UHGV virus genome: UHGV-0264650
Strand: one strand, 5' to 3'
DNA from: a virus
Length of the DNA stretch: 15,105 bases
Below are positions 7,869 through 15,105 of this stretch, piece after piece (positions within the stretch are counted from its first letter, which is position 1; every line of letters starts with the position of its first letter). The position numbers and the translations under genes are program-made. The notes under the pieces were generated by a model that was not told the DNA's origin, searched no databases, and was given only the letters and a program-made list of their open reading frames with translations.

Positions 7869-8813
7869 TTACTCCCAATCTTCGCCATATTTAGAGTGCG
7901 CAACCTTATAGTTTTCTTGCGCCCGATCTAATATTCGTTCGTTTAATATGTTACCGTCTTCGTCAACTAATACGGTAATCGTGCTACATTTGCAGTTAAT
8001 AGAATTTGGGGATCTGCTCCACCATTCGCGCTGCTCATCTATGGTGTATGTTTTCCCGTGCCGCTGCGCGTGCGATAGCCTGGTAGTCGGTGACAATGCC
8101 GAAATGTGCATTTGCATAGTGCGCAGATTAAATTCTTCTGTCGCCGCTTCTGCCTCATCCATACGCGCTGTGCGTAACGCTGTGCATATTTCAGTTCGAG
8201 CAATACGTTTGCATCTGTATAGCGGTAATTGCGTCTCCTGATTCAATGTGCGCGCTATTTCCAGTGGGTTTAAACCACGGGCCATACCTTCAGTTAATCG
8301 CCGGGCCATATCCTTTTTGATCTGTGCTGTCAGCCCGCGCATTTCCTCAAATACACGGGTACGGACCAGGGCAAGGCGCGTGCGGTAAGTCGTGCTGGAT
8401 AGCACGGCAGACACATCAGGATAGGCGCTTGAGTACGTGATAGACTGGTTAGCGAGGTTGGCATATTCCTGTGCCGTGCCGCGCTGATAAGCCACCTTCA
8501 CGTAATTCTGCCAAAACCAAAAACTTTCCGGGTCGGTTAGCTCGAATATCTCATCAATCATGTCGCTGGCGTCTTCCAGCAAGTCATGTAATTCGTCGAT
8601 GTAGATCTGGAAGGTGTATTTTTTATTAACAGCCAGGCTATATTGCATTCTGTCCAGTATGGCGATATATGGATCGGCAACTTTCTTCAGGCAGACTTTA
8701 AAACGCTTGATAGCACCAGACCTTAACTTCCCTGTCATGGTCGGGTCTTCGGTGTTAGATGGCATTATCGCGGCTGGAGGTATTCGCCTGATTATTTTCT
8801 TCACCTTCATCAT
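7869..8813 (-). CDS. Head morphogenesis protein, Mu F / SPP1 gp7 family
   Basis: It contains RCKRIARTEICTALRTARMDEAEA (the A-R-T-E core typical of Mu F-like minor head proteins) and lies directly after the portal gene. The start is uncertain. ATGs at 8819, 8813 and 8810 overlap the portal 3' end, and ATG 8738 lies 16 nt after the portal stop. Confidence 0.75.
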   Translation of the reverse strand: MMKVKKIIRRIPPAAIMPSNTEDPTMTGKLRSGAIKRFKVCLKKVADPYIAILDRMQYSLAVNKKYTFQIYIDELHDLLEDASDMIDEIFELTDPESFWFWQNYVKVAYQRGTAQEYANLANQSITYSSAYPDVSAVLSSTTYRTRLALVRTRVFEEMRGLTAQIKKDMARRLTEGMARGLNPLEIARTLNQETQLPLYRCKRIARTEICTALRTARMDEAEAATEEFNLRTMQMHISALSPTTRLSHAQRHGKTYTIDEQREWWSRSPNSINCKCSTITVLVDEDGNILNERILDRAQENYKVAHSKYGEDWE

Positions 8814-10125
8814 CGTCATCCTCTTCCGTTTCTACTTCACTGGCTGGGCCATCGTATCCGGCAGCCTCGCGGATCTCATCGCCGCTAAATATTTCTTCAC
8901 CAGTAGCCAAACAAGCCTGATTGATTTGCGCCATCTTGTCTGCGGCTTCCAGTAGCTCTGCTTTGGTCATGGCGTTAAGGTCGTCCCATAGCACTGATAC
9001 ATCTACTGGCATACTGATAAGGCGTAGATCTGCCATCTTGCGGAACAGATCTTCAATCTCGCCACCGATTTCCTCCCTGCGGGTCATGCAGCGGCTGTTG
9101 AAGTAACGCAGGTCTTCTGTTGATGCGCGTTCTCCCTGCTGGTTCCCAACCAAGATGCGGGTTGGAATATCAACACCAGCGGCGGCGGTTTGCAGGTTTA
9201 CGTCATAGGTTGATGACGGGTCAGATACGGCAGTAACCAGCGGGCTTACTGTCGCACCCTGTAACGCCATCATTACGTCATTACCCTTATTCATTTCAGC
9301 CGCAGCCTCATTGAATCTTTCGCGTAACTCTGTAACGTCGCAATCGTATGTTGCAGCCAGGGAGCGGAAGTCAATCTCTTTATCGAACGAAATGGCAAGC
9401 TGACGCGCTGCGTTTTTCAGGAATGATTCACCACTACCGCCTTCCACTTTTTCCAGTGATACGAATGCGTTGTAGGAAGGTTCAAGGAAAGCGATGACAT
9501 CATCAGAATAGTCGCCAAAGATAAATATGCGGTCAGGGTGGATCTTTCTGGCAATGGTCTTACTGTTAATGCGTTCTTTGTATTCCCACCACGTTGGCAG
9601 GCCATAGTTTTCATTATCCGGGTTTTCTTCGAAGTCCTTCGGTGTAAGAGCGCCAGCCCACACAGGGGTAAATTTTGCAATGCCTACGCCTTTTGTCACT
9701 GGCTGATCCCACGGCTTGTTATCTCTGATATGAATTAACAGACCAGAGTAACGACCAATGAGGCGGCGGCGATCACATTCAGCAACAGTGCGCCAAAATC
9801 TGTTGTTAAATTTCTTCTTGATTTCTCTTTCCCACGGCGTTTCCTTTTTCGCTTTCTCGTCTTCAGTTCCTTCAATCATCTTTGGCTTGGTGCGCCAGCA
9901 AGTCGTAACAATCTTTTCTACAGCACCGTGAGCGATGCCGCCGCGTCTGTACAGTTTGTATAGATCGTGATACGTGATCTCTTCTTTGAATCCGTATTCG
10001 CTCCACGCAGCATCACGTTTGGCATCTATCCCCATAGTGAACGGATGTGCCGCTGCATAGCGGGCAAAGGCCGCCTGGCGTTGTGACAAGGCAGCATTAA
10101 CCGCCAATTCTAAATTGGATGGCAT
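8755..10125 (-). CDS. Portal protein
   Basis: ATG at 10125 with GGAG 8 nt upstream. The track's ATG at 10146 has no SD. The product is ~456 aa, follows terL and has an acidic C-terminal tail (EVETEEDDDDEGEENN). Size and position fit a portal. Confidence 0.85.
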   Translation of the reverse strand: MPSNLELAVNAALSQRQAAFARYAAAHPFTMGIDAKRDAAWSEYGFKEEITYHDLYKLYRRGGIAHGAVEKIVTTCWRTKPKMIEGTEDEKAKKETPWEREIKKKFNNRFWRTVAECDRRRLIGRYSGLLIHIRDNKPWDQPVTKGVGIAKFTPVWAGALTPKDFEENPDNENYGLPTWWEYKERINSKTIARKIHPDRIFIFGDYSDDVIAFLEPSYNAFVSLEKVEGGSGESFLKNAARQLAISFDKEIDFRSLAATYDCDVTELRERFNEAAAEMNKGNDVMMALQGATVSPLVTAVSDPSSTYDVNLQTAAAGVDIPTRILVGNQQGERASTEDLRYFNSRCMTRREEIGGEIEDLFRKMADLRLISMPVDVSVLWDDLNAMTKAELLEAADKMAQINQACLATGEEIFSGDEIREAAGYDGPASEVETEEDDDDEGEENNQANTSSRDNAI

Positions 10126-10236
10126 AATGTTTACTCCTGAATACATGTTTACGCGTTGCTACGCGAAAAATAGAAAAACTTGTGGGGGATTGTGAGACAG
10201 ATTTTATGTAGCCAATTGAGAATTATTCTTGTTCAT

Positions 10237-10273: not shown

Positions 10274-11752
10274 TTAAAATCCGCGCAGGCGTTTAGGTAA
10301 CATAAGACCCATCGCCTGTGGTTGGCTTAATTCAGTGATCCCCCATACCATCGCATCCATACGGTCAGGGGATTTTTTAGCGGTAGCTGGCACATATTCC
10401 ATCATTTGATTTTCCAGCGTGTATAGCTCACCAGTGTGTGCCACCCTTCCTTGTGCATACAGTGCCGATATTGGTTCAGCGCGGGCGAATTTACCTTTAC
10501 TTGCGTGCACCTTAACAATGCGGCCTTTGAATCCGGCATTGCGTAGTGTGGCCTCTGCCATATCACCACCCTGGTTGGTTTCGATAACCATCGCGTCAGC
10601 TTCATGGATGTTGTAGGCGTTCATTGATGCCTGCGCCCAGTCGTTAGGTGACATACGGCCTGAATAGTCGCCATCAACAGAATACTGAGCATTCTTGCCA
10701 CCACCATAAGCGGAACATGCCATGATCCCCGTTTCGTCCGACTCATCAGATGATGTTGTCGCCGGGTCAATGGCTATCACAGTGCGGATTTTCTCCTGCG
10801 TTATCTGCATTCGGTGTGCTGCGGTTATCATTGCTTCAGTCCACAATGCGCCTTCTTCGTCGAATTTACGCGGGCGCTGCATGTACTGGGCTTCAAATGA
10901 CCGTCTGTGCGCCTTCAGTCCGGCTTCATGGGTGTCATTGTGTTTTTTAGGCCATAGCCAGCCGTCCGGCAGGTTGTGAGCGATAGGAATGGCGAACTCG
11001 TTTTCAGGGTACAGATCCCAATAATCCAGGCTGTTGTCGATCTTCACTGGCAGGTTAAGGTGATACCACTTTTCACCACTGCCGCCGCGTAACAGGTAGC
11101 CGGACAAATCATCGTAGTGGATGCGCTGCATGATGACGATAACAGGCGTTGTTTGCACTGCCAGACGCGATGCAAGCGTATCGTTATAGTTGGTGTTCAC
11201 CTGCTTTCTCACCACGTCAGAGTAAGCGTCAGCGGGTTTTAATGGGTCGTCGATGATTAACGCGCCATTAAATCCTGATTCCATGTACCCCGCACGGAAC
11301 CCGGTCACCTGACCAAGTGATGACGTTGCATACACGCCGCCGCCGTATTCGGTCCACCACATCGATTTTGAGTTGGCATCGTTGCGGATCTTCATGGGCC
11401 ACATTGCCTGATAGTCAGGCGTACAGATCATGTTTCTTACAGTCGAGGAGTTGAGTAGCGCCAGGTTGTTGGAATAGGAAACGTGAAGGAATCTTGTGCG
11501 GGGATTTATTGCGAGGGACCGCGCCATCATATTGATAGTCGCGATCATGGTTTTGCCGTACCCTGGGGGAATGTTAATGATGAGTCGGGTTATCTCACCA
11601 TTAATAACGCGTTGCAGTGCATCACGGATGGCTAAATGATGGCCTGAGATTAACATCTTCGTTCCGTTCGCTTGTTTATAGAAGTAGCGATTGAAAAACA
11701 GGCCATCGTTTTCACATTTGGACTGAATAACTCGTTCTTTGATTGTCAACAT
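10274..11752 (-). CDS. terL: Terminase large subunit
   Basis: ATG at 11752 is preceded by GAGGTG with a 5-nt spacer (alternative GTG at 11758). It has a Walker A-like PPGYGKTM and a Walker B-like ALIIDDPLKP, followed by a C-terminal nuclease-type region. At 492 aa it lies directly after terS. Confidence 0.93.
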   Translation of the reverse strand: MLTIKERVIQSKCENDGLFFNRYFYKQANGTKMLISGHHLAIRDALQRVINGEITRLIINIPPGYGKTMIATINMMARSLAINPRTRFLHVSYSNNLALLNSSTVRNMICTPDYQAMWPMKIRNDANSKSMWWTEYGGGVYATSSLGQVTGFRAGYMESGFNGALIIDDPLKPADAYSDVVRKQVNTNYNDTLASRLAVQTTPVIVIMQRIHYDDLSGYLLRGGSGEKWYHLNLPVKIDNSLDYWDLYPENEFAIPIAHNLPDGWLWPKKHNDTHEAGLKAHRRSFEAQYMQRPRKFDEEGALWTEAMITAAHRMQITQEKIRTVIAIDPATTSSDESDETGIMACSAYGGGKNAQYSVDGDYSGRMSPNDWAQASMNAYNIHEADAMVIETNQGGDMAEATLRNAGFKGRIVKVHASKGKFARAEPISALYAQGRVAHTGELYTLENQMMEYVPATAKKSPDRMDAMVWGITELSQPQAMGLMLPKRLRGF

Positions 11753-11754
11753 AA

Positions 11755-12240
11755 TCACACCTCATCTTCAACTTCCTGGACGATGCGGGCGATCTCTTCT
11801 TTCGTTACTTCAACCCGGACGGGTGCTTCCTCCCTGTTGCCGACGATCTCCTGTGTGACGCGTTCACCATATTTACGCGGTTGCAGTTTTGCCAGTAACC
11901 ACTTGCGCGTTTCAATCATCAGTTGATGGCGGCGGCATTCATCTTTATCAATGTTCTCCGCTGCATCGGCTATATCTATGATTTCATCAGCCAATACCTC
12001 AAACCCTATTTCCTTCGCGCGTATGTACATGTCCGAAAACTCCGGAACATCTCTGAACCATTTAAGGATTGTCGAACGCGTTGGCATACCTGGCATCTTC
12101 GAGATCTTATTAATACTCTTACCGTCCGCCACCAGCTCACAGATCTCTAATGCCTTTTCTTCGGTATAACCATGCGGACGGCCCACCCTTTTTGCGGCTG
12201 GCTTTTTATCGTCAGCCTTCGCCTTTTTCGTGCGGGCCAT
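11755..12240 (-). CDS. terS: Terminase small subunit (N-terminal helix-turn-helix)
   Basis: 161 aa with GAGG SD 6 nt upstream. It has a basic N-terminus followed by an HTH-like segment (EEKALEICELVADGKSINKISKMPGMPTRSTILKWF). Its stop abuts the terL start. Confidence 0.8.
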   Translation of the reverse strand: MARTKKAKADDKKPAAKRVGRPHGYTEEKALEICELVADGKSINKISKMPGMPTRSTILKWFRDVPEFSDMYIRAKEIGFEVLADEIIDIADAAENIDKDECRRHQLMIETRKWLLAKLQPRKYGERVTQEIVGNREEAPVRVEVTKEEIARIVQEVEDEV

Positions 12241-12250
12241 AATTCACCTC

Positions 12251-12496
12251 TTAATTATCTTTTTCAAATCTTAATTTAAATTCATTCATCATCTTTTCTA
12301 CTTCCTGTTCGGAAAGATAGATGGTTTCATTATTTTCTGCTGAATCAAGTGCCTTTCTTATTTCATCTGCTATTTTTAGCTCCTCATCGTTCACAACGTC
12401 ACCTTTTAATATTTGTTGATGATATATACGCAAGCCACAAAACTTGCGCAGTATGTTAATACTTCCAACCAGTCGAATAGCTCTTTCACTGTTCAC
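12251..12496 (-). CDS. Hypothetical protein with an acidic C-terminal half; start uncertain
   Basis: The frame is open from GTG 12496, which lies 3 nt after the last mini-ORF stop. The only in-frame ATGs are in the last 13 codons. An internal GTG preceded by AAAGGTGA with a 4-nt spacer would give a 46-aa product (VNDEELKIADEIRK...). I recognise no family. Confidence 0.45.
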   Translation of the reverse strand: MNSERAIRLVGSINILRKFCGLRIYHQQILKGDVVNDEELKIADEIRKALDSAENNETIYLSEQEVEKMMNEFKLRFEKDN

Positions 12497-12499
12497 CCT

Positions 12500-12571
12500 T
12501 CACATAATCGAAAGCGCCCATGTAATAAGGACGATAGCCAAAACCATATAGATAAAATCTGACTCTCTCAT
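12500..12571 (-). CDS. Mini-ORF 10: 23-aa single-helix hydrophobic peptide MRESDFIYMVLAIVLITWALSIM
   Basis: ATG at 12571, AAGGTGG SD with a 5-nt spacer, TGA at 12502-12500. Confidence 0.55.
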   Translation of the reverse strand: MRESDFIYMVLAIVLITWALSIM

Positions 12572-12585
12572 ATTGTCCACCTTAC

Positions 12586-12630
12586 TTACGCAAAGAAAAT
12601 GATAACAGTTAACAGCGAACTTATAGCCAT
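12586..12630 (-). CDS. Mini-ORF 9: 14-aa hydrophobic peptide MAISSLLTVIIFFA (weakest member)
   Basis: ATG at 12630 and TAA at 12588-12586. There is no recognisable SD and it is very short. I list it only because it fills the sole gap in the array and has the same character as the others. Confidence 0.2.
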   Translation of the reverse strand: MAISSLLTVIIFFA

Positions 12631-12646
12631 GATTAAGAAATCGCGG

Positions 12647-12721
12647 TCAGACATTGATAATAAACCCCACAATAACAACCGCTGCGATACATACGAATAA
12701 TACAGCTTCGATAGTTTCCAT
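12647..12721 (-). CDS. Mini-ORF 8: 24-aa single-helix peptide METIEAVLFVCIAAVVIVGFIINV
   Basis: ATG at 12721, AGGTGA SD with a 4-nt spacer, TGA at 12649-12647. Confidence 0.55.
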   Translation of the reverse strand: METIEAVLFVCIAAVVIVGFIINV

Positions 12722-12729
12722 ATATTCAC

Positions 12730-12798
12730 CTATTGAGTCAGCGCGGTCATGGTAAGAACAATCGCAACGATCAGGAAAAAGAAATCAAGCCATTTCAT
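12730..12798 (-). CDS. Mini-ORF 7: 22-aa single-helix peptide MKWLDFFFLIVAIVLTMTALTQ
   Basis: ATG at 12798 overlaps the stop of mini-ORF 6 as ATGA. GGGAG SD with an 8-nt spacer, TAG at 12732-12730. Confidence 0.55.
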   Translation of the reverse strand: MKWLDFFFLIVAIVLTMTALTQ

Positions 12799-12860
12799 TT
12801 TTTAAACTCCCGATAAACATCTACGGCAATGACTACAACTACAGCCACCAGCAATAGCAT
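12795..12860 (-). CDS. Mini-ORF 6: 21-aa single-helix peptide MLLLVAVVVVIAVDVYREFKK
   Basis: ATG at 12860 lies 1 nt after the TGA of mini-ORF 5 (TGAgATG). The SD is weak, so initiation is probably by coupling. TGA at 12797-12795. Confidence 0.45.
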   Translation of the reverse strand: MLLLVAVVVVIAVDVYREFKK

Positions 12861-12861
12861 C

Positions 12862-12969
12862 TCATATGCGTTCATTGACACTACCTATAACCAGACCAAT
12901 GATGATAATTACGGCTACTACGCCCAACATCATTCCGCACATAATAGCCAGTAGTTCGAATATATCCAT
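12862..12969 (-). CDS. Mini-ORF 5: 35-aa single-helix peptide MDIFELLAIMCGMMLGVVAVIIIIGLVIGSVNERI
   Basis: ATG at 12969, AGGTGA SD with a 4-nt spacer. This is the C-terminal half of the track's 70-aa TTG-start ORF 12862..13074, whose N-terminal half overlaps mini-ORFs 3 and 4 in other frames. Confidence 0.6.
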   Translation of the reverse strand: MDIFELLAIMCGMMLGVVAVIIIIGLVIGSVNERI

Positions 12970-12977
12970 GCAGTCAC

Positions 12978-13052
12978 CTATACAACATTTTTCCACCAGA
13001 AATAGATAATGACGGCGACCAACGACCACCAGATAGGACCGTAAATATTCAT
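12978..13052 (-). CDS. Mini-ORF 4: 24-aa single-helix peptide MNIYGPIWWSLVAVIIYFWWKNVV
   Basis: ATG at 13052, GAAGG SD with an 8-nt spacer, TAG at 12980-12978. Confidence 0.5.
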   Translation of the reverse strand: MNIYGPIWWSLVAVIIYFWWKNVV

Positions 13053-13063
13053 GGTGAATACCT

Positions 13064-13138
13064 TCAGCTTTCAATGAATATCATGATCGCCAGCCATACA
13101 GCGACGCATAAAGAAAGGATAACGAGCGGGTCAATCAT
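13064..13138 (-). CDS. Mini-ORF 3: 24-aa single-helix peptide MIDPLVILSLCVAVWLAIMIFIES
   Basis: ATG at 13138, GGAGGGG SD with a 4-nt spacer. It overlaps the end of mini-ORF 2 by 8 nt. TGA at 13066-13064. Confidence 0.55.
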   Translation of the reverse strand: MIDPLVILSLCVAVWLAIMIFIES

Positions 13139-13247
13139 CTCGCCCCTCCAACCAGTGCTTGATCTTTGCGTTTATTAGTGCAACTGCAATAAAACCCACC
13201 AGATATACAGAAATGCCGATCAATCCGGCAATGATATAATCATCCAT
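13131..13247 (-). CDS. Mini-ORF 2: 38-aa peptide MDDYIIAGLIGISVYLVGFIAVALINAKIKHWLEGRDD (one helix plus a charged tail)
   Basis: ATG at 13247, GGTGA SD with an 8-nt spacer, TGA at 13133-13131. Confidence 0.55.
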   Translation of the reverse strand: MDDYIIAGLIGISVYLVGFIAVALINAKIKHWLEGRDD

Positions 13248-13251
13248 AACA

Positions 13252-13320
13252 TTATTCACCGACCAGTAATATTACAGCGGCAGCCATTCCGATAAATAAA
13301 CCTGACAGAAAAGTAAGCAT
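13252..13320 (-). CDS. Mini-ORF 1: 22-aa single-helix peptide MLTFLSGLFIGMAAAVILLVGE
   Basis: ATG at 13320 lies 2 nt after the TGA of the 185-aa gene (GGGGGTGAttATG), so the SD is GGGGG with a 5-nt spacer. TAA at 13254-13252. Confidence 0.55.
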   Translation of the reverse strand: MLTFLSGLFIGMAAAVILLVGE

Positions 13321-13322
13321 AA

Positions 13323-13880
13323 TCACCCCCGTTTAAAGCTCATAACACGCGGTACAAGCGCTTCTTTTGCTTTCGGCTTACGTTTGCCTTTCTTAGCTGG
13401 TTTTTGCTTGTCTTTTGCCTCATTAGCAATATCCCTTGCCTCTTGTGCGCTAAGACGTTCGGTTACTTCTTCTGCCTGCATTGCTGCAACCTGTGCTTCG
13501 TTTGATTCATCCAGGATTGGGAAGAATGCGTCAAAGATGCGGCCTACCATGTAAGCGTAAGTCTCGTTCGCCGGATGAGTTGGATCAGTGGTCGCCACGA
13601 CGCCAACATCACTTAGAACGTGGAATGTAGTGTGGGCCGCTTCATATACCAGTGTTCCTAACTCATTGTCGAATACTGCGATCACATAGAAATTACCGCC
13701 TTTCTCACCAGTACAAGTAAGCGTTAATCCTCCTGCCAGTTCGAAATCAGGTTCGATTGGTATTCCGGCCCTTTCGCAAAATTCATAAAACATGTCGCGG
13801 GTCGGGCAGAAGAAAACTGTTGTATGCTCAAAGAGCGGAACTTTGAATTGAGGCAACTTAATGCCTTTAGCCTTAGCCAT
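13323..13880 (-). CDS. Hypothetical protein with a Lys-rich C-terminal tail; first gene of the accessory cluster
   Basis: 185 aa. ATG at 13880 is preceded by AGAGGAA (13892-13886). The N-terminal ~120 aa look globular, followed by a helical acidic linker and the tail KDKQKPAKKGKRKPKAKE. I recognise no family. Confidence 0.7.
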   Translation of the reverse strand: MAKAKGIKLPQFKVPLFEHTTVFFCPTRDMFYEFCERAGIPIEPDFELAGGLTLTCTGEKGGNFYVIAVFDNELGTLVYEAAHTTFHVLSDVGVVATTDPTHPANETYAYMVGRIFDAFFPILDESNEAQVAAMQAEEVTERLSAQEARDIANEAKDKQKPAKKGKRKPKAKEALVPRVMSFKRG

Positions 13881-13900
13881 CAGAATATTCCTCTATCCTG

Positions 13901-13936
13901 AAAAATATAACCCCCGCAAAACTGGACACCGCAGGG
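13901..13936 (-). terminator. Possible weak intrinsic terminator or attenuator upstream of the accessory cluster
   Basis: The minus-strand RNA reads CCCUGC (13936-13931), a 13-nt loop, GCGGGG (13917-12), then G, then UUAUAUUUUU (13910-13901). The stem is 6 bp including one G-U pair and the loop is long, so this is marginal. Confidence 0.3.
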
Positions 13937-14158
13937 AGTGAAAACAGCTATAAAACACTAAAACGGCGCTGCATAAGTACAGTTTTTAGAATTTTATAAA
14001 ACTGGAGAATGGTGCTTTCTTCTACCCAGGTAGCGCCGGACCTGTTAATGGGACTGTTGATCCGGTATTACGTGTTTTTGACTTTTCCGCCGTCGCTCGC
14101 GGGAAGGATTGGCCCGGTTATGGCTGGCTGGCAGAAACGGCGACACGTCCACGCGCTG

Positions 14159-14629
14159 TTATTCTTTGCGTATGCACTGCGTCTTGATGTAGTCCTGCAA
14201 TCCGGTGATCTTCGCGTCTTTCTCTTTTAGTTGTTCTCTGAGGGATAGATAAGCCGATTCAGCGTCGGGAGTGAGTCTACAGGCGGCTCCATCAATGGCG
14301 CTGGCGGTTCCGGTGGGGTCGGACACTCGCACGGGCGTTGCGTTGACGCGCAACCGGATAGTACCGTTATCAATGCCAGTGCGCAGATCGGCAATGTCAG
14401 ATCTGATAGCTTTAATCTCATCGTGATACCTCTTATCAAGTTTTGACAGTTCGGCGTTTCGCTCCTTCATCTGCTGAATAGTGTTACTTGCCGTCTTCAG
14501 TGCGCCTTTCGTCACCGTGACTTGTTCCTGTAACCTTGCCGCCTCACCCTGGTAATAACACGTTACGGCGGTCAGCCCGGCAATAATGCAAACAACAACG
14601 GCGATGATTAACGTCTTCACCTTGTCCAT
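14159..14629 (-). CDS. Rz: i-spanin (Rz-like)
   Basis: 156 aa with an N-terminal TM anchor ([26 protein letters not shown]) followed by a long helical, charged periplasmic domain. Its start overlaps the endolysin 3' end by 13 nt. It contains an embedded lipoprotein ORF in another frame, the classic Rz/Rz1 arrangement. Confidence 0.85.
14227..14421 (-). CDS. Rz1: o-spanin (Rz1-like outer-membrane lipoprotein), fully embedded in Rz in another frame
   Basis: ATG at 14421 is preceded by AAGAGG with a 7-nt spacer. The 64-aa product is [64 protein letters not shown], with lipobox LSGC and a short Pro-rich mature peptide as in lambda Rz1. The track's TTG start at 14439 adds 6 unlikely codons. Confidence 0.85.
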   Translation of the reverse strand: MRLKLSDLTLPICALALITVLSGCASTQRPCECPTPPEPPAPLMEPPVDSLPTLNRLIYPSENN

Positions 14630-15105
14630 TTTTCACCCCATTCGCAAACGGCATATTCAACATCTCGGCGGTTTACCAGGCCTTGCCACTTCTTACCACC
14701 AGCGTATACCCAGCGTTTAAGCTGTGCGCACGCTTCCGATTTCTTGCCGTCATTAAGTAGCTTTAATAAGGTTGATGTTTTGAAGTTGGTTGCGCCTACG
14801 TTATAGGCGAATGAATAAAGTGCTGCGCGGGTAAAATCTGATATTTCGACTTTGATATATGGGTCAATCGCTTTTGCGGTCTTGTGTAGATCTTTATTTA
14901 ACAAAGCATCGCATTCTGATTGCGTGTAAGTCTTACCAAGCATGATGTCTTTTCCGACGTGTCCATAACATATCGTGTAAACACCGATGACATCTCTGTA
15001 TGGCTTATACTCAACGCCTTCAAGATCTTTTATCATCACCGCCGCAATAGCGATCGCCCCACCAGCCGACGCCGCAACAATCTTGTTTTTCAGCGATTGG
15101 CTAAT
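14617..15105 (-). CDS. SAR endolysin, P21 R-like lysozyme (partial; the true start lies beyond the right edge)
   Basis: The frame stays open upstream of the track's GTG (15039) to the window end: [44 protein letters not shown]... The Gly/Ala-rich weakly hydrophobic N-segment is a signal-anchor-release domain. The E-x8-D-x5-T catalytic spacing is present ([17 protein letters not shown]). From memory, the sequence is closely colinear with phage 21 R. Confidence 0.9.

Follow-up and report, generated by a model that had tools for sequence, protein, structure and literature searches.

We show by comparative sequence analysis that positions 13320-12406 on the minus strand of the window (the whole 15,105-nt stretch of viral DNA analysed here, UHGV-0264650) are a segment of an operon with eleven independent protein-coding genes, and these mini-ORFs are very probably real, translated genes for membrane peptides. 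They are tightly packed between the lysis and the DNA-packaging genes of a gut coliphage genome, start with ATG or GTG, are 22-38 codons long and each encode a hydrophobic helix. Every gene has its own Shine-Dalgarno (SD) sequence and start codon, the junctions are either overlaps or gaps of 2-18 nt, and the genes are distributed over all three frames and end at conserved stop codons. A preliminary description of this DNA had proposed ten ATG-initiated ORFs on the minus strand of 12500-13320, in one operon with lysis genes on one side and packaging genes on the other; all ten were found with the peptide sequences as given there and their position was confirmed, but an eleventh gene (12489-12406) had been missed, and the start codons of ORF 6 and ORF 9 had been misplaced.

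Layout of the mini-gene array

The upstream flank of the array is a 185-aa gene (phrog_1365; 13323-13880; this and all further features are on the minus strand), which is translationally coupled to the array and adjoins it in 53/53 relatives with an upstream flank (the sequence of L051 ends before this gene); its product has HExxH in the relatives and YEAAH in the window copy. Mini-gene I (13252-13320; 22 aa, MLTFLSGLFIGMAAAVILLVGE) is joined to it via TGAttATG, and family I is present in 22/54 genomes, being 69 nt in every copy with a dN/dS of 0.22; L016 lacks a 73-nt cassette (13322-13250) which spans this gene. Mini-gene A1 (13131-13247; 38 aa, MDDYIIAGLIGISVYLVGFIAVALINAKIKHWLEGRDD) belongs to a family found in 46/54 genomes (dN/dS 0.19) with a C-terminal tail of variable length, and overlaps by 8 nt with mini-gene A2 (13064-13138; 24 aa, MIDPLVILSLCVAVWLAIMIFIES; 48/54 genomes, 75 nt in 48/48, dN/dS 0.27). 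Mini-gene E (12978-13052; 24 aa, MNIYGPIWWSLVAVIIYFWWKNVV) has counterparts in 34/54 genomes (75 nt in 34/34, dN/dS 0.28), with two independently disrupted copies in L023 and L009. Mini-gene G (12862-12969; 35 aa, MDIFELLAIMCGMMLGVVAVIIIIGLVIGSVNERI; 25/54 genomes, dN/dS 0.13) is the frame which, when extended upstream, gives a 70-aa ORF with a TTG start, and is missing from L016 as an exact start-to-start cassette (12969-12876).

The start codon of mini-gene B (ORF 6; 12795-12875; 26 aa, MNAYEMLLLVAVVVVIAVDVYREFKK) was corrected to 12875 (MNAYEMLLL...), which is five codons before the start noted previously, gives a 14-nt overlap with G and has a TAGGTGA SD sequence in genomes without the preceding gene; the family is found in 52/54 genomes (81 nt in 51/52, dN/dS 0.21). 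Mini-gene D (12730-12798; 22 aa, MKWLDFFFLIVAIVLTMTALTQ) overlaps with B through ATGA and is represented in 50/54 genomes (69 nt in 49/50, dN/dS 0.11), followed by mini-gene H (12647-12721; 24 aa, METIEAVLFVCIAAVVIVGFIINV; 23/54 genomes, 75 nt in 23/23, dN/dS 0.24), which has family K as its allele at this position. The start of mini-gene F (ORF 9; 12586-12654; 22 aa, MSDRDFLIMAISSLLTVIIFFA) was also corrected, to 12654 (MSDRDFLIMAISS...), with an 8-nt ATGTCTGA overlap with H; family F is present in 34/54 genomes (69 nt in 33/34, dN/dS 0.26), and one lineage has lost its start because the upstream gene carries a synonymous substitution in the codon overlapping it. Mini-gene J (12500-12571; 23 aa, MRESDFIYMVLAIVLITWALSIM) comes from a family in 19/54 genomes (dN/dS 0.29), and is absent from L002, L016 and L042, in which an 86-87-nt cassette (12586/7-12501) is missing.

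The eleventh gene, mini-gene C (12406-12489; 27 aa, MKELFDWLEVLTYCASFVACVYIINKY), has a GTG start after AAGGGTGA in the window and an ATG start in all relatives (dN/dS 0.065). Since it is ATG-initiated and present in 50/54 relatives, and is replaced in the other 4/54 by the homologous family S, the 81-aa gene previously placed at 12496-12251 is a mis-call, which reads mini-gene C off-frame and fuses it with a downstream 47-aa gene. The latter (12251-12394; GTG start; RefSeq WP_021537953.1) encodes an acidic soluble protein and is a 155-nt insertion of 30% GC between the array and the TerS gene, with AGGTGA repeats on both sides, and does not belong to the array. The downstream flank is the gene for the small terminase subunit TerS (11755-12240), which is of the Sf6 type (Pfam PF20901, E = 7e-37).

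Promoter-like and terminator-like sites in the array were at chance level by consensus scan, which is weak evidence (5 promoter-like sites vs 5.9 ± 2.4 in shuffles), and from this lack of signals of its own we infer that the array would be expressed from the late transcript, together with the lysis, packaging and head genes. For an autonomous, prophage-expressed unit of the moron or superinfection-exclusion type, with its own promoter and terminator, the scans showed no excess of either signal, which is again weak evidence.

Conservation across the mEpimmI coliphages

The window belongs to the mEpimmI (mEp021-like) group of temperate coliphages, a group described previously and reported to equal lambdoid phages in its prevalence in the human gut (PMC11893012). 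It has 84-92% DNA identity and a shared gene order with mEp554, mEp010, mEp044, mEp013, mEp021, mEp515 and MagusPhagus, and collinearity with the mEp021-group genomes covers the lysis, packaging and portal genes. We compared 54 genomes over the interval from the HExxH-protein gene to the small terminase gene, where the array families, which are restricted to these coliphages, are always located. Each genome contains 3-13 array genes of 20-47 aa, drawn from approximately 26 families in a fixed order and giving 43 arrangements, of which that of the window is unique, while the flanking genes are 84-97% identical. Whole genes are gained or lost as start-to-start cassettes, with indels matching single-gene units exactly. 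D (12798-12730) is a paralogue of J (12571-12500), with z = 6.4 vs shuffles, a relationship between E and F is possible (z = 5.4), and many families are positional alleles of one another (H/K, I/N/R/O/W, L/J and C/S). The sequence relationships show that the array genes are a lineage-specific set of multigene families which are partly paralogous, and the earlier view that the peptides share no similarity is only partly correct.

Among the 493 gene copies in the 54 genomes, 492 start with ATG and one with GTG, an SD core of 4 nt or longer precedes 400 of them, and together the copies cover 91% of the array span, with junction gaps clustering at −8, −4 and +2 to +18 nt. The pooled dN/dS was 0.186 in frame vs 1.03 and 1.50 when read in the alternative frames, with a range of 0.04-0.29 within families, and was 0.126 for TerS and 0.075 for the 185-aa gene in the flanks. 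Summed over families, there were 121, 77 and 237 variable sites at codon positions 1, 2 and 3, respectively, and 77% of aliphatic columns were at least 90% conserved. Together with the finding of only three independent disruptions among the 493 copies, this in-frame dN/dS indicates that these are real genes, and shows, at the level of sequence, that each array family is under purifying selection. Separate translation, as proposed in the preliminary description, agrees with the conservation of frames, starts and stops, the variation at synonymous sites and the differences in gene number between relatives.

The control suggested in that description, with shuffled sequences and the plus strand, was carried out by counting ATG-initiated ORFs of 20-60 codons in which some stretch of 15 residues reaches a Kyte-Doolittle score of 2.0 or more. 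The real minus strand of the segment has nine such ORFs, eight of them with an SD sequence and covering 735 nt, whereas 1000 dinucleotide shuffles gave on average 0.88 ORFs, 0.14 with SD and 99 nt covered (maxima 4, 2 and 486 nt, respectively). There were no qualifying hydrophobic ORFs on the plus strand of the segment, nor on either strand of the remaining ~14 kb of the 15.1-kb window. The eleven genes represent ~6% of the window length, and RefSeq leaves the interval unannotated; GenBank phage records contain the genes only in part and in wrong frames. For such short peptides the comparative signal is exceptionally clear, so that the locus could be a benchmark for small-ORF callers.

Peptide properties and related systems

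Each peptide is approximately one uncharged hydrophobic helix with a core of 13-27 residues, in agreement with the single membrane helix per peptide predicted earlier, and in six families no residue follows the helix. The N-terminal flank is mostly acidic (M-x3-D/E) and the C-terminus is absent or basic, with 32 acidic and 6 basic residues in the N-terminal flanks and 25 basic and 15 acidic residues in the C-terminal flanks, and this charge pattern predicts an N-out/C-in topology (helix and topology calls were made from charge counts and hydrophobicity scales). The residues I, V, L, A, M and F make up 63% of the total, and the best 17-residue segments have a mean Eisenberg hydrophobicity of 0.63-1.00 and a helical moment of 0.04-0.24, i.e. 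they are uniformly hydrophobic; the same calculation on YohP, AcrZ and IbsC gave similar values. With at most 50 aa, one hydrophobic segment of spanning length and low amphipathicity, the peptides have the features of small single-pass membrane proteins.

As suggested previously, the peptides fit no described family, since scans of Pfam, NCBIfam and PHROG were all empty. Holin families gave no match at E ≤ 1 for the ten window peptides scanned (PHROGs and Pfam, the latter for the peptides other than C), and a weak match to holin phrog_920 (E = 0.04) was found for family M, a 47-aa family which is not in the window. Pinholins and class II holins have two transmembrane domains (TMDs), class I holins three and class III holins one with a large soluble domain, and all classes have a charged cytoplasmic C-terminal tail; the single uncharged core of each array peptide does not correspond to a holin, pinholin or antiholin architecture. 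All peptides compared with the 66-aa holin of the closest phage had Smith-Waterman z ≤ 1.9 (12/12), and thus show no sign of the similarity expected of an antiholin derived from the cognate holin. Releasin (DUF2730, Mu gp25) was rejected as there was no Pfam match and the peptides lack the soluble domain. Type I toxins (Ibs, ShoB, Ldr, Hok, TisB, DinQ) had no match at E ≤ 1 in Pfam or NCBIfam, and neither strand of 11700-14200 matched an Rfam family at E ≤ 1; with no Rfam antitoxin RNA, promoter sites at chance level and genes coupled head to tail, the layout is not that of a type I toxin-antitoxin system. Searches for tandem DNA repeats in the array gave none.

In size and form the peptides are like YohP, AcrZ, MgrB, IbsC, ShoB, Ldr and TisB, which are 19-50 aa with a single helix and no signal peptide. 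In contrast to the coupled polycistronic array, these bacterial small membrane proteins are encoded by single, separately regulated genes, with antisense RNA for the type I toxins. Because of their shortness, translation of the array peptides would end while they are still inside the ribosome tunnel, and their insertion into the inner membrane would thus be post-translational; they probably share the route shown for the 27-aa YohP, via SRP and YidC or SecYEG (PMC7549839). The staphylococcal psm-alpha locus (four peptides of ~21 aa) and aureocin A70 also have several leaderless peptides of 20-30 codons with their own SD sequences on one transcript, but those peptides are amphipathic, often cationic and act on the membranes of other cells, whereas the array peptides are uniformly hydrophobic with acidic N-termini. 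An operon of amphipathic peptides (PSM-alpha, leaderless bacteriocins) was rejected on these grounds, with the moments of 0.04-0.24 comparing with 0.59 for PSM-alpha3.

Candidate functions

The endolysin gene lies ~1.3 kb upstream of the array, which follows the entire holin-endolysin-spanin cassette. The endolysin (14617-15105, the ORF passing the end of the window) has an N-terminal Gly/Ala-rich, SAR-like membrane segment, with an anchor of the SAR type and lysines in a short cytoplasmic head; it is followed by an Rz-type i-spanin (14159-14629; Pfam PF03245, E = 4.5e-26), and the holin of the closest phage has two helices. From its sequence this neighbouring cassette looks like a SAR-endolysin and two-helix-holin system, which makes a link between the array and lysis more concrete; the preliminary description rightly remarked that the peptides lack the two-helix layout of a pinholin, but overlooked this cassette.

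Our tentatively preferred reading, which is possible but falls short of probable, is that real array genes encode late inner-membrane peptides tuning the adjacent lysis switch. Late in infection the peptides would build up in the inner membrane and adjust the membrane-dependent switch by which the two-helix holin and SAR endolysin bring about lysis. This could happen via contacts between helices, with the holin or the SAR anchor as partner, or via an additive influence on how far the membrane is energised, and the gene content of the array would then be a rheostat for lysis timing that can evolve. Single-TMD proteins with such effects are known: Mu releasin is required to free the SAR endolysin, in which Lys6 and Lys7 account for this dependence (PMC9239132), and the 64-aa ORF52 of BSPM4 modulates holin timing (PMC11657625). 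The Mu and window endolysins have the same type of SAR anchor, with lysines in the short cytoplasmic head. While Mu releasin gp25, BSPM4 ORF52 and antiholins such as T4 RI are single-pass inner-membrane adjusters of SAR endolysin or holin firing, they are unlike the array peptides in being encoded by one gene per phage, of 64-100 aa or more and with a functional soluble domain. The Gordonia phages have up to four 'holin-like' transmembrane genes in 16 organisations among 77 phages (PMC9671378), and thus high diversity in gene content is compatible with a role in lysis. As in the array, these and the mycobacteriophage F1 genes (LysF1a/LysF1b, PMC13056207) are adjacent small transmembrane genes near the endolysin in varying combinations, and most of them have no assigned family. 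They differ in that the genes number no more than four and encode proteins of 79-168 aa that have 1-4 helices together with charged soluble domains, as opposed to bare helices, and in that they directly follow lysA in phages of Gram-positive hosts, whereas in the coliphage array the spanin and 185-aa genes intervene; such an organisation was stated not to have been described for Gram-negative phages (PMC9671378).

Several observations argue against a role in lysis. The array content follows the endolysin and Rz alleles only weakly (Spearman 0.16 and 0.17, respectively), no better than TerS or TerL, and follows the 185-aa gene alleles best (Spearman 0.37); the peptides are unlike holin helices, and between them and the lysis genes lie the gene for the spanin, a probable terminator hairpin and the 185-aa gene. 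Known lysis regulators also come as one or two per phage, usually with a soluble domain.

A broader interpretation, which we put forward as a rather unlikely one on the basis of the sequences, is that the locus could be a type of phage accessory module not recognised before, in which bare transmembrane helices form a library shuffled as cassettes, with every helix evolved to dock on a particular membrane protein of the host, the lysis system or a competitor. If so, phages would possess a combinatorial 'TM-helix pharmacopoeia', with recombination at shared SD/start junctions re-assorting its genes one at a time. Should every helix have a target of its own, natural inhibitors of membrane proteins would be available from the array. 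The mEp isolates include natural variants with 5, 7, 8 and 10 array genes, and with cultured phages growing on E. coli K-12 they offer a tractable system, which could show the roles of bare transmembrane micro-proteins in infection, any effect on lysis timing in a SAR-endolysin system, and the birth, duplication and shuffling of such arrays.

Anti-defence or exclusion is almost as likely as lysis timing. The peptides could be a counter-defence and competition battery, itself a doubtful proposition, in which each helix would block or hijack a different inner-membrane protein of the host or a rival phage (abortive-infection membrane effectors, DNA-entry factors of superinfecting phages, host proteases or transporters) and turnover would reflect an arms race. 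This agrees with the extreme presence/absence polymorphism of the array between flanks of 84-97% identity, with positional alleles resembling exchanged specificities, with the weak correlation to lysis-gene alleles, and with the aliphatic conservation within families, which fits specific helix-helix recognition as known for the bacterial small membrane regulators AcrZ and MgrB. However, with no promoter signal inside or just upstream of the array, the expression in a lysogen needed for classical superinfection exclusion is unlikely, late expression would be too late against most defences, and evolution within families is purifying and not diversifying. The conserved aliphatic positions fit specific partners, though not necessarily lysis proteins, and they also speak against an effect without partners, in which membrane mass or occupancy of YidC/SRP would shut down host envelope biogenesis or dissipate the proton motive force as with type I toxins, and only total dose would matter. 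Such an effect would suit the minimal, highly hydrophobic architecture shared by all families and the variation in gene number, as though dose were the variable, and overproduction of many hydrophobic peptides of this size (such as IbsC, ShoB and YohP) depolarises membranes; it is nevertheless improbable, as swaps between I, L, V and F should then be free, yet dN/dS is 0.04-0.13 in several families and most aliphatic columns are conserved, and neither a fixed gene order nor conserved positional identity is needed for a dose effect.

The remaining readings give the peptides themselves no function. It is very improbable that the coupled mini-ORFs serve to pass on and attenuate ribosomes from the 185-aa gene to TerS, with the peptides as by-products, even though coupling is unbroken from the 185-aa stop codon to ~10 nt before the TerS start in relatives without the 47-aa insert, and TerS is typically required at a low level: selection acts at the amino-acid level (dN/dS 0.19 in frame vs at least 1.0 off-frame), the hydrophobic helix is retained in all ~26 families, arrays of 3 and 13 genes would attenuate very differently, and in the window the soluble 47-aa gene intervenes between array and TerS. 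The chance that there are no genes here, and that the ORFs are fortuitous in a T-rich non-coding region (such as one with a packaging site), remnants of a degraded multi-pass gene or parts of one frameshifted gene, is close to negligible. The empty RefSeq annotation and a GC content of 40% vs 47-50% in the flanks would be in its favour, but the shuffle and strand controls speak against chance, as do the codon-position pattern and frame-specific dN/dS, the retention of ATG starts in nearly every copy, the use of three frames with conserved stops, the gain and loss of genes as single units, and the lack of Rfam matches and tandem repeats, while the low GC is explained by the 54% T at codon position 2.

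Mini-genes between the 185-aa gene and the small terminase gene

The window is related to the mEpimmI (mEp021-like) temperate coliphages, a group described previously (PMC11893012), and in minus-strand order it carries the endolysin gene (14617 to the window end at 15105), the Rz spanin gene (14629-14159), the 185-aa gene (13880-13323) directly ahead of the mini-gene array (13320-12406), a 47-aa insert (12394-12251), the Sf6-type small terminase (TerS) gene (12240-11755), and then the large terminase and portal (8755-10146) genes. ORFs on the minus strand of 12300-13500 were listed down to 20 codons, which reproduced the ten hydrophobic peptides that the preliminary description had proposed for 12500-13320 from the sequence alone. 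While all ten ORFs were confirmed, comparison with relatives moved the start codons of two of them and added an eleventh gene: the sixth gene (B) starts at 12875 (MNAYEM..., 26 aa) and the ninth gene (F) at 12654 (MSDRDF..., 22 aa), and the additional gene (C, 12489-12406) has a GTG start (MKELFDWLEVLTYCASFVACVYIINKY). The gene order is thus I, A1, A2, E, G, B, D, H, F, J and C. The 81-aa gene called at 12496-12251 is a fusion artefact: its first third reads gene C out of frame, and its last 47 codons (12394-12251) are a separate gene for a soluble protein, known as WP_021537953.1 in the RefSeq prophage annotation. All three reading frames are used by the eleven mini-genes, and the junctions comprise TGAttATG, two 8-nt overlaps, one 14-nt overlap, one ATGA overlap and gaps of 8-14 nt.

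For an estimate of chance occurrence we counted ATG-initiated ORFs of 20-60 codons containing a 15-residue window with a Kyte-Doolittle score of at least 2.0. The real strand of the array has nine such ORFs, eight of them with a Shine-Dalgarno sequence (SD), compared to means of 0.88 and 0.14 and maxima of 4 and 2 in 1000 dinucleotide shuffles. None was present on the opposite strand of the array segment or on either strand of the other 14 kb of the window, and runs of at least three were confined to the array locus within 347 kb of DNA from related phages. There was no Rfam match on either strand of the array region and no tandem DNA repeat in the array; the only direct repeats, at two gene starts, were short and weak. 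We found neither scattered stops, nor a lack of purifying selection, nor shuffle-like runs, nor one longer gene, all of which the preliminary description had listed as arguments against its own reading.

The array is an unannotated, lineage-specific, cassette-shuffled set of single-helix micro-protein genes, and belongs with the known phage small membrane proteins. NCBIfam gave no match at all for any window peptide, and the matches in Pfam and PHROGs were weak, with neither a score near the curated cut-off nor any holin or toxin family among them. A tblastn search of 50,697 phage genomes with the concatenated peptides found just the seven mEpimmI-group phages, and a degenerate DNA pattern for MKWLDFFF found 36 IMG/VR contigs, all within the TerS-positive set. 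No array was found upstream of the distant Sf6-type TerS relatives (38-48% identity, L093-L095), and a search of genome contigs with the 185-aa protein gave no match. The RefSeq annotation (PGAP) is empty over about 670-780 nt between the 185-aa and 47-aa genes, and PHANOTATE-based GenBank records list some members as 'hypothetical protein' alongside off-frame fusions. The mini-genes are unmentioned in the paper describing the phage group (PMC11893012), where neither 'transmembrane' nor 'small ORF' occurs, and the words 'prophage', 'tandem', 'terminase', 'holin' and 'lysis' do not occur in the Enterobacteriaceae microproteome preprint. The nearest described cases are the actinobacteriophage lysis cassettes with up to four 'holin-like' transmembrane genes, which are highly variable between related phages and of which multiple-gene sets are, according to the authors, unknown in Gram-negative phages (PMC9671378), together with the single accessory transmembrane-domain regulators of lysis, Mu releasin (PMC9239132) and BSPM4 ORF52 (PMC11657625).

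Conservation and turnover of the mini-genes in related phages

Relatives were gathered using TerS as anchor, giving 47 IMG/VR loci and seven GenBank phages. One locus (L051) was cut off upstream of the interval, and the 53 relatives with the upstream flank plus the window make 54 genomes with 47 distinct interval sequences. In 53/53 of these relatives the 185-aa gene and TerS enclose an interval of 320-1160 nt. The 54 genomes contain 493 mini-gene copies (3-13 per genome, median 9), taking up 91% of the array span. The start codon is ATG in 492, the sole GTG being that of gene C in the window, and 400 of the 493 are preceded by an SD with a core of 4 nt or more. The set comprises 204 unique peptides. 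Gene length is near-constant within families, being 75 nt for A2 (48/48), E (34/34) and H (23/23), and 69 nt for D (49/50). Summed over families, there are 121, 77 and 237 variable sites at codon positions 1, 2 and 3, respectively, and dN/dS ranges from 0.04 to 0.29 in families with at least 10 copies. The pooled dN/dS is 0.186 in frame versus 1.03 and 1.50 in the other two frames of the same alignments, with values of 0.126 for TerS and 0.075 for the 185-aa gene. On this comparative evidence, the mini-genes are real genes, with each family evidently under purifying selection.

Decayed copies were also sought at the DNA level with length-filtered queries, and just three independent events came to light: in gene E a start-codon loss and a 1-nt frameshift, and in gene F one loss of the start codon common to four near-identical contigs (L018, L026, L032, L034). 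In the latter, a synonymous AAT to AAC substitution at the last-but-one sense codon (Asn) of gene K, which is three codons from the gene end, removes the overlapping ATG of F (ATCAATGTCTGA to ATCAACGTCTGA, e.g. L018 2505-2515). The remainder of F is intact in these contigs, and an internal ATG would give a 14-aa version, the form that the preliminary description had proposed for the window.

Clustering at 70% identity gave about 26 families, after removal of one off-frame artefact lying across gene C ('family Q'). The families follow one another collinearly in every genome: [I/N/R/O/W/Z] - A1 - [T/P] - A2 - E - [X] - G - B - [L/J] - D - [H/K] - F - [J/Y] - M - [C/S]. Nearly all genomes (46-54 of 54) have C or S, B, D, A2 and A1, the other families being accessory, and with 43 different arrangements in 54 genomes (that of the window being unique in the sample) it is clear that the gene content of the array turns over fast. 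Among the GenBank phages, the array has 5 genes in mEp021, 10 in mEp554 and mEp010, and 12 in MagusPhagus. In pairwise alignments the differences consist of whole-gene cassettes with breakpoints at start codons or SDs, examples of which on the minus strand of the window are G (12969-12876), E+G (13053-12876), I+A1 (13320-13139) and J (12586-12501). Alternatives at the same position are homologous (I/O/R, J/L, H/K, C/S, E/U and B/P, z = 6.9-9.7), and D and J are paralogues inside the window (z = 6.4); the set therefore resembles a multigene family growing by duplication and divergence, and looks like one that is re-assorted at conserved translation-signal junctions.

Neighbouring genes and transcription of the array

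Translational coupling joins the 185-aa gene to the array in every case, and of the alleles compared, those of this gene follow array content most closely. Its product had no Pfam match and no PDB sequence or profile match, and the AlphaFold2 model (mean pLDDT 45.7) was unusable. A zincin-type HExxH motif, LxHExAHxTFH, is present in 8/8 aligned relatives, and one database source labels a relative as 'PolyVal metallopeptidase superfamily'. The window copy reads LVYEAAHTTFH, with Tyr for the first putative metal-binding His (codon 79, 13644-13646, minus strand). In phage mEp013 (L005) an HNH endonuclease gene (1298-1783) lies between the array and a truncated 185-aa gene, with the alignment limited to residues 1-126, and this insertion is another sign of a recombination or insertion hot spot at the junction of the two. 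At the other end of the array, the 47-aa gene (minus strand, GTG start, MNDEELKIADEIRK...) encodes an acidic soluble protein without a Pfam or PHROG family, and sits on a 155-nt insertion with AGGTGA repeats on both flanks and a GC content of 30% (47% for the window), which only some relatives carry. The homologue of the window portal gene in an E. coli FAH prophage (L055, 5555-6050), which follows the large terminase, is named 'anti-CBASS protein Acb1 family protein' in RefSeq, and the homologous gene is called a portal protein in the MagusPhagus record; the Acb1 label is either a mis-annotation or denotes a portal with an Acb1-like domain.

The mini-genes, with their coupled translation signals, lie among the late genes. 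With regard to transcription, promoter-like and terminator-like matches in 11700-14700 were at the level of shuffled sequence, from which we infer that the late transcript includes the array, which is probably transcribed late. After Rz and upstream of the 185-aa gene, the minus strand has an intergenic hairpin with a T-run, at about 13901-13936 (CCCTGC ... GCGGGG, then TTATATTTTT), which escaped the consensus scan because of its long loop; the mEp021 and mEp013 records have an annotated rho-independent terminator at this site. To reach the array, late transcription would have to read through this hairpin or be antiterminated. In relatives, PHANOTATE also calls small ORFs in the stretch from Rz to the 185-aa gene; these are non-hydrophobic and were judged spurious. 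The lower GC content of the array (40% versus 47-50%) is due to 54% T at codon position 2.

Peptide properties, lysis genes and possible roles

The peptides have a median length of 24 aa and a single uncharged core of 13-27 residues each. The N-terminal flanks hold 32 acidic versus 6 basic residues, with a recurring M-x3-D/E motif, and the C-terminal flanks 25 basic versus 15 acidic residues, with six families ending with the helix; by the positive-inside rule this predicts an N-out/C-in topology. The helical hydrophobic moment is 0.04-0.24 at a mean hydrophobicity of 0.63-1.00, similar to YohP, AcrZ and IbsC and unlike the amphipathic PSM-alpha3 (moment 0.59) and TisB (0.37) in the same calculation. 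By composition, the mini-gene products are bare hydrophobic helices.

The endolysin has a short Lys-containing head followed by a Gly/Ala-rich hydrophobic segment, as read in the closest phage, which is typical of SAR endolysins, and in relatives the holin is a 66-aa protein with two helices, a combination which suggests a pinholin-type lysis system. The endolysin ORF in the window (14617-15105, minus strand) runs off the window end, and the call with a GTG start at 15039 is too short; the full-length endolysin of relatives has 163 aa. Relatives also encode a separate 65-aa protein with hydrophobic segments upstream of the holin (L001, MagusPhagus, 445-642, MIECLIIAVVIIYLAGVILMGAF...), outside the window and not a member of the array.

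Our preferred guess, a tentative one, is that the array peptides adjust the membrane-dependent switch formed by the two-helix holin and the SAR endolysin, with the number and identity of the genes providing an evolvable setting of lysis time. The peptides would insert into the membrane post-translationally, as peptides of 22-27 aa cannot leave the ribosome before termination, with YohP as a precedent (PMC7549839). The idea of a holin decoy was dropped, as the array peptides lack similarity to the holin helices. The main rival, in which the peptides are specific transmembrane-helix ligands aimed at host or competitor membrane proteins, is only a little less likely: it is favoured by the fast turnover of gene content and because array content is weakly coupled to the lysis alleles (Spearman 0.16-0.17, versus 0.37 for the 185-aa neighbour), and disfavoured by the lack of any sign of lysogenic expression. 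At least 90% conservation was seen in 77% of the aliphatic columns, the conserved residues being not just special ones, which argues for constraint beyond bulk hydrophobicity; that the peptides merely load the membrane or the insertase in bulk is improbable. A translational relay along the coupled genes is given very little credence, and with the in-frame dN/dS being so far from that of the other two frames, we consider it barely conceivable that these are not genes. Cultured K-12 phages with naturally differing mini-gene numbers allow the function of the array to be tested directly.
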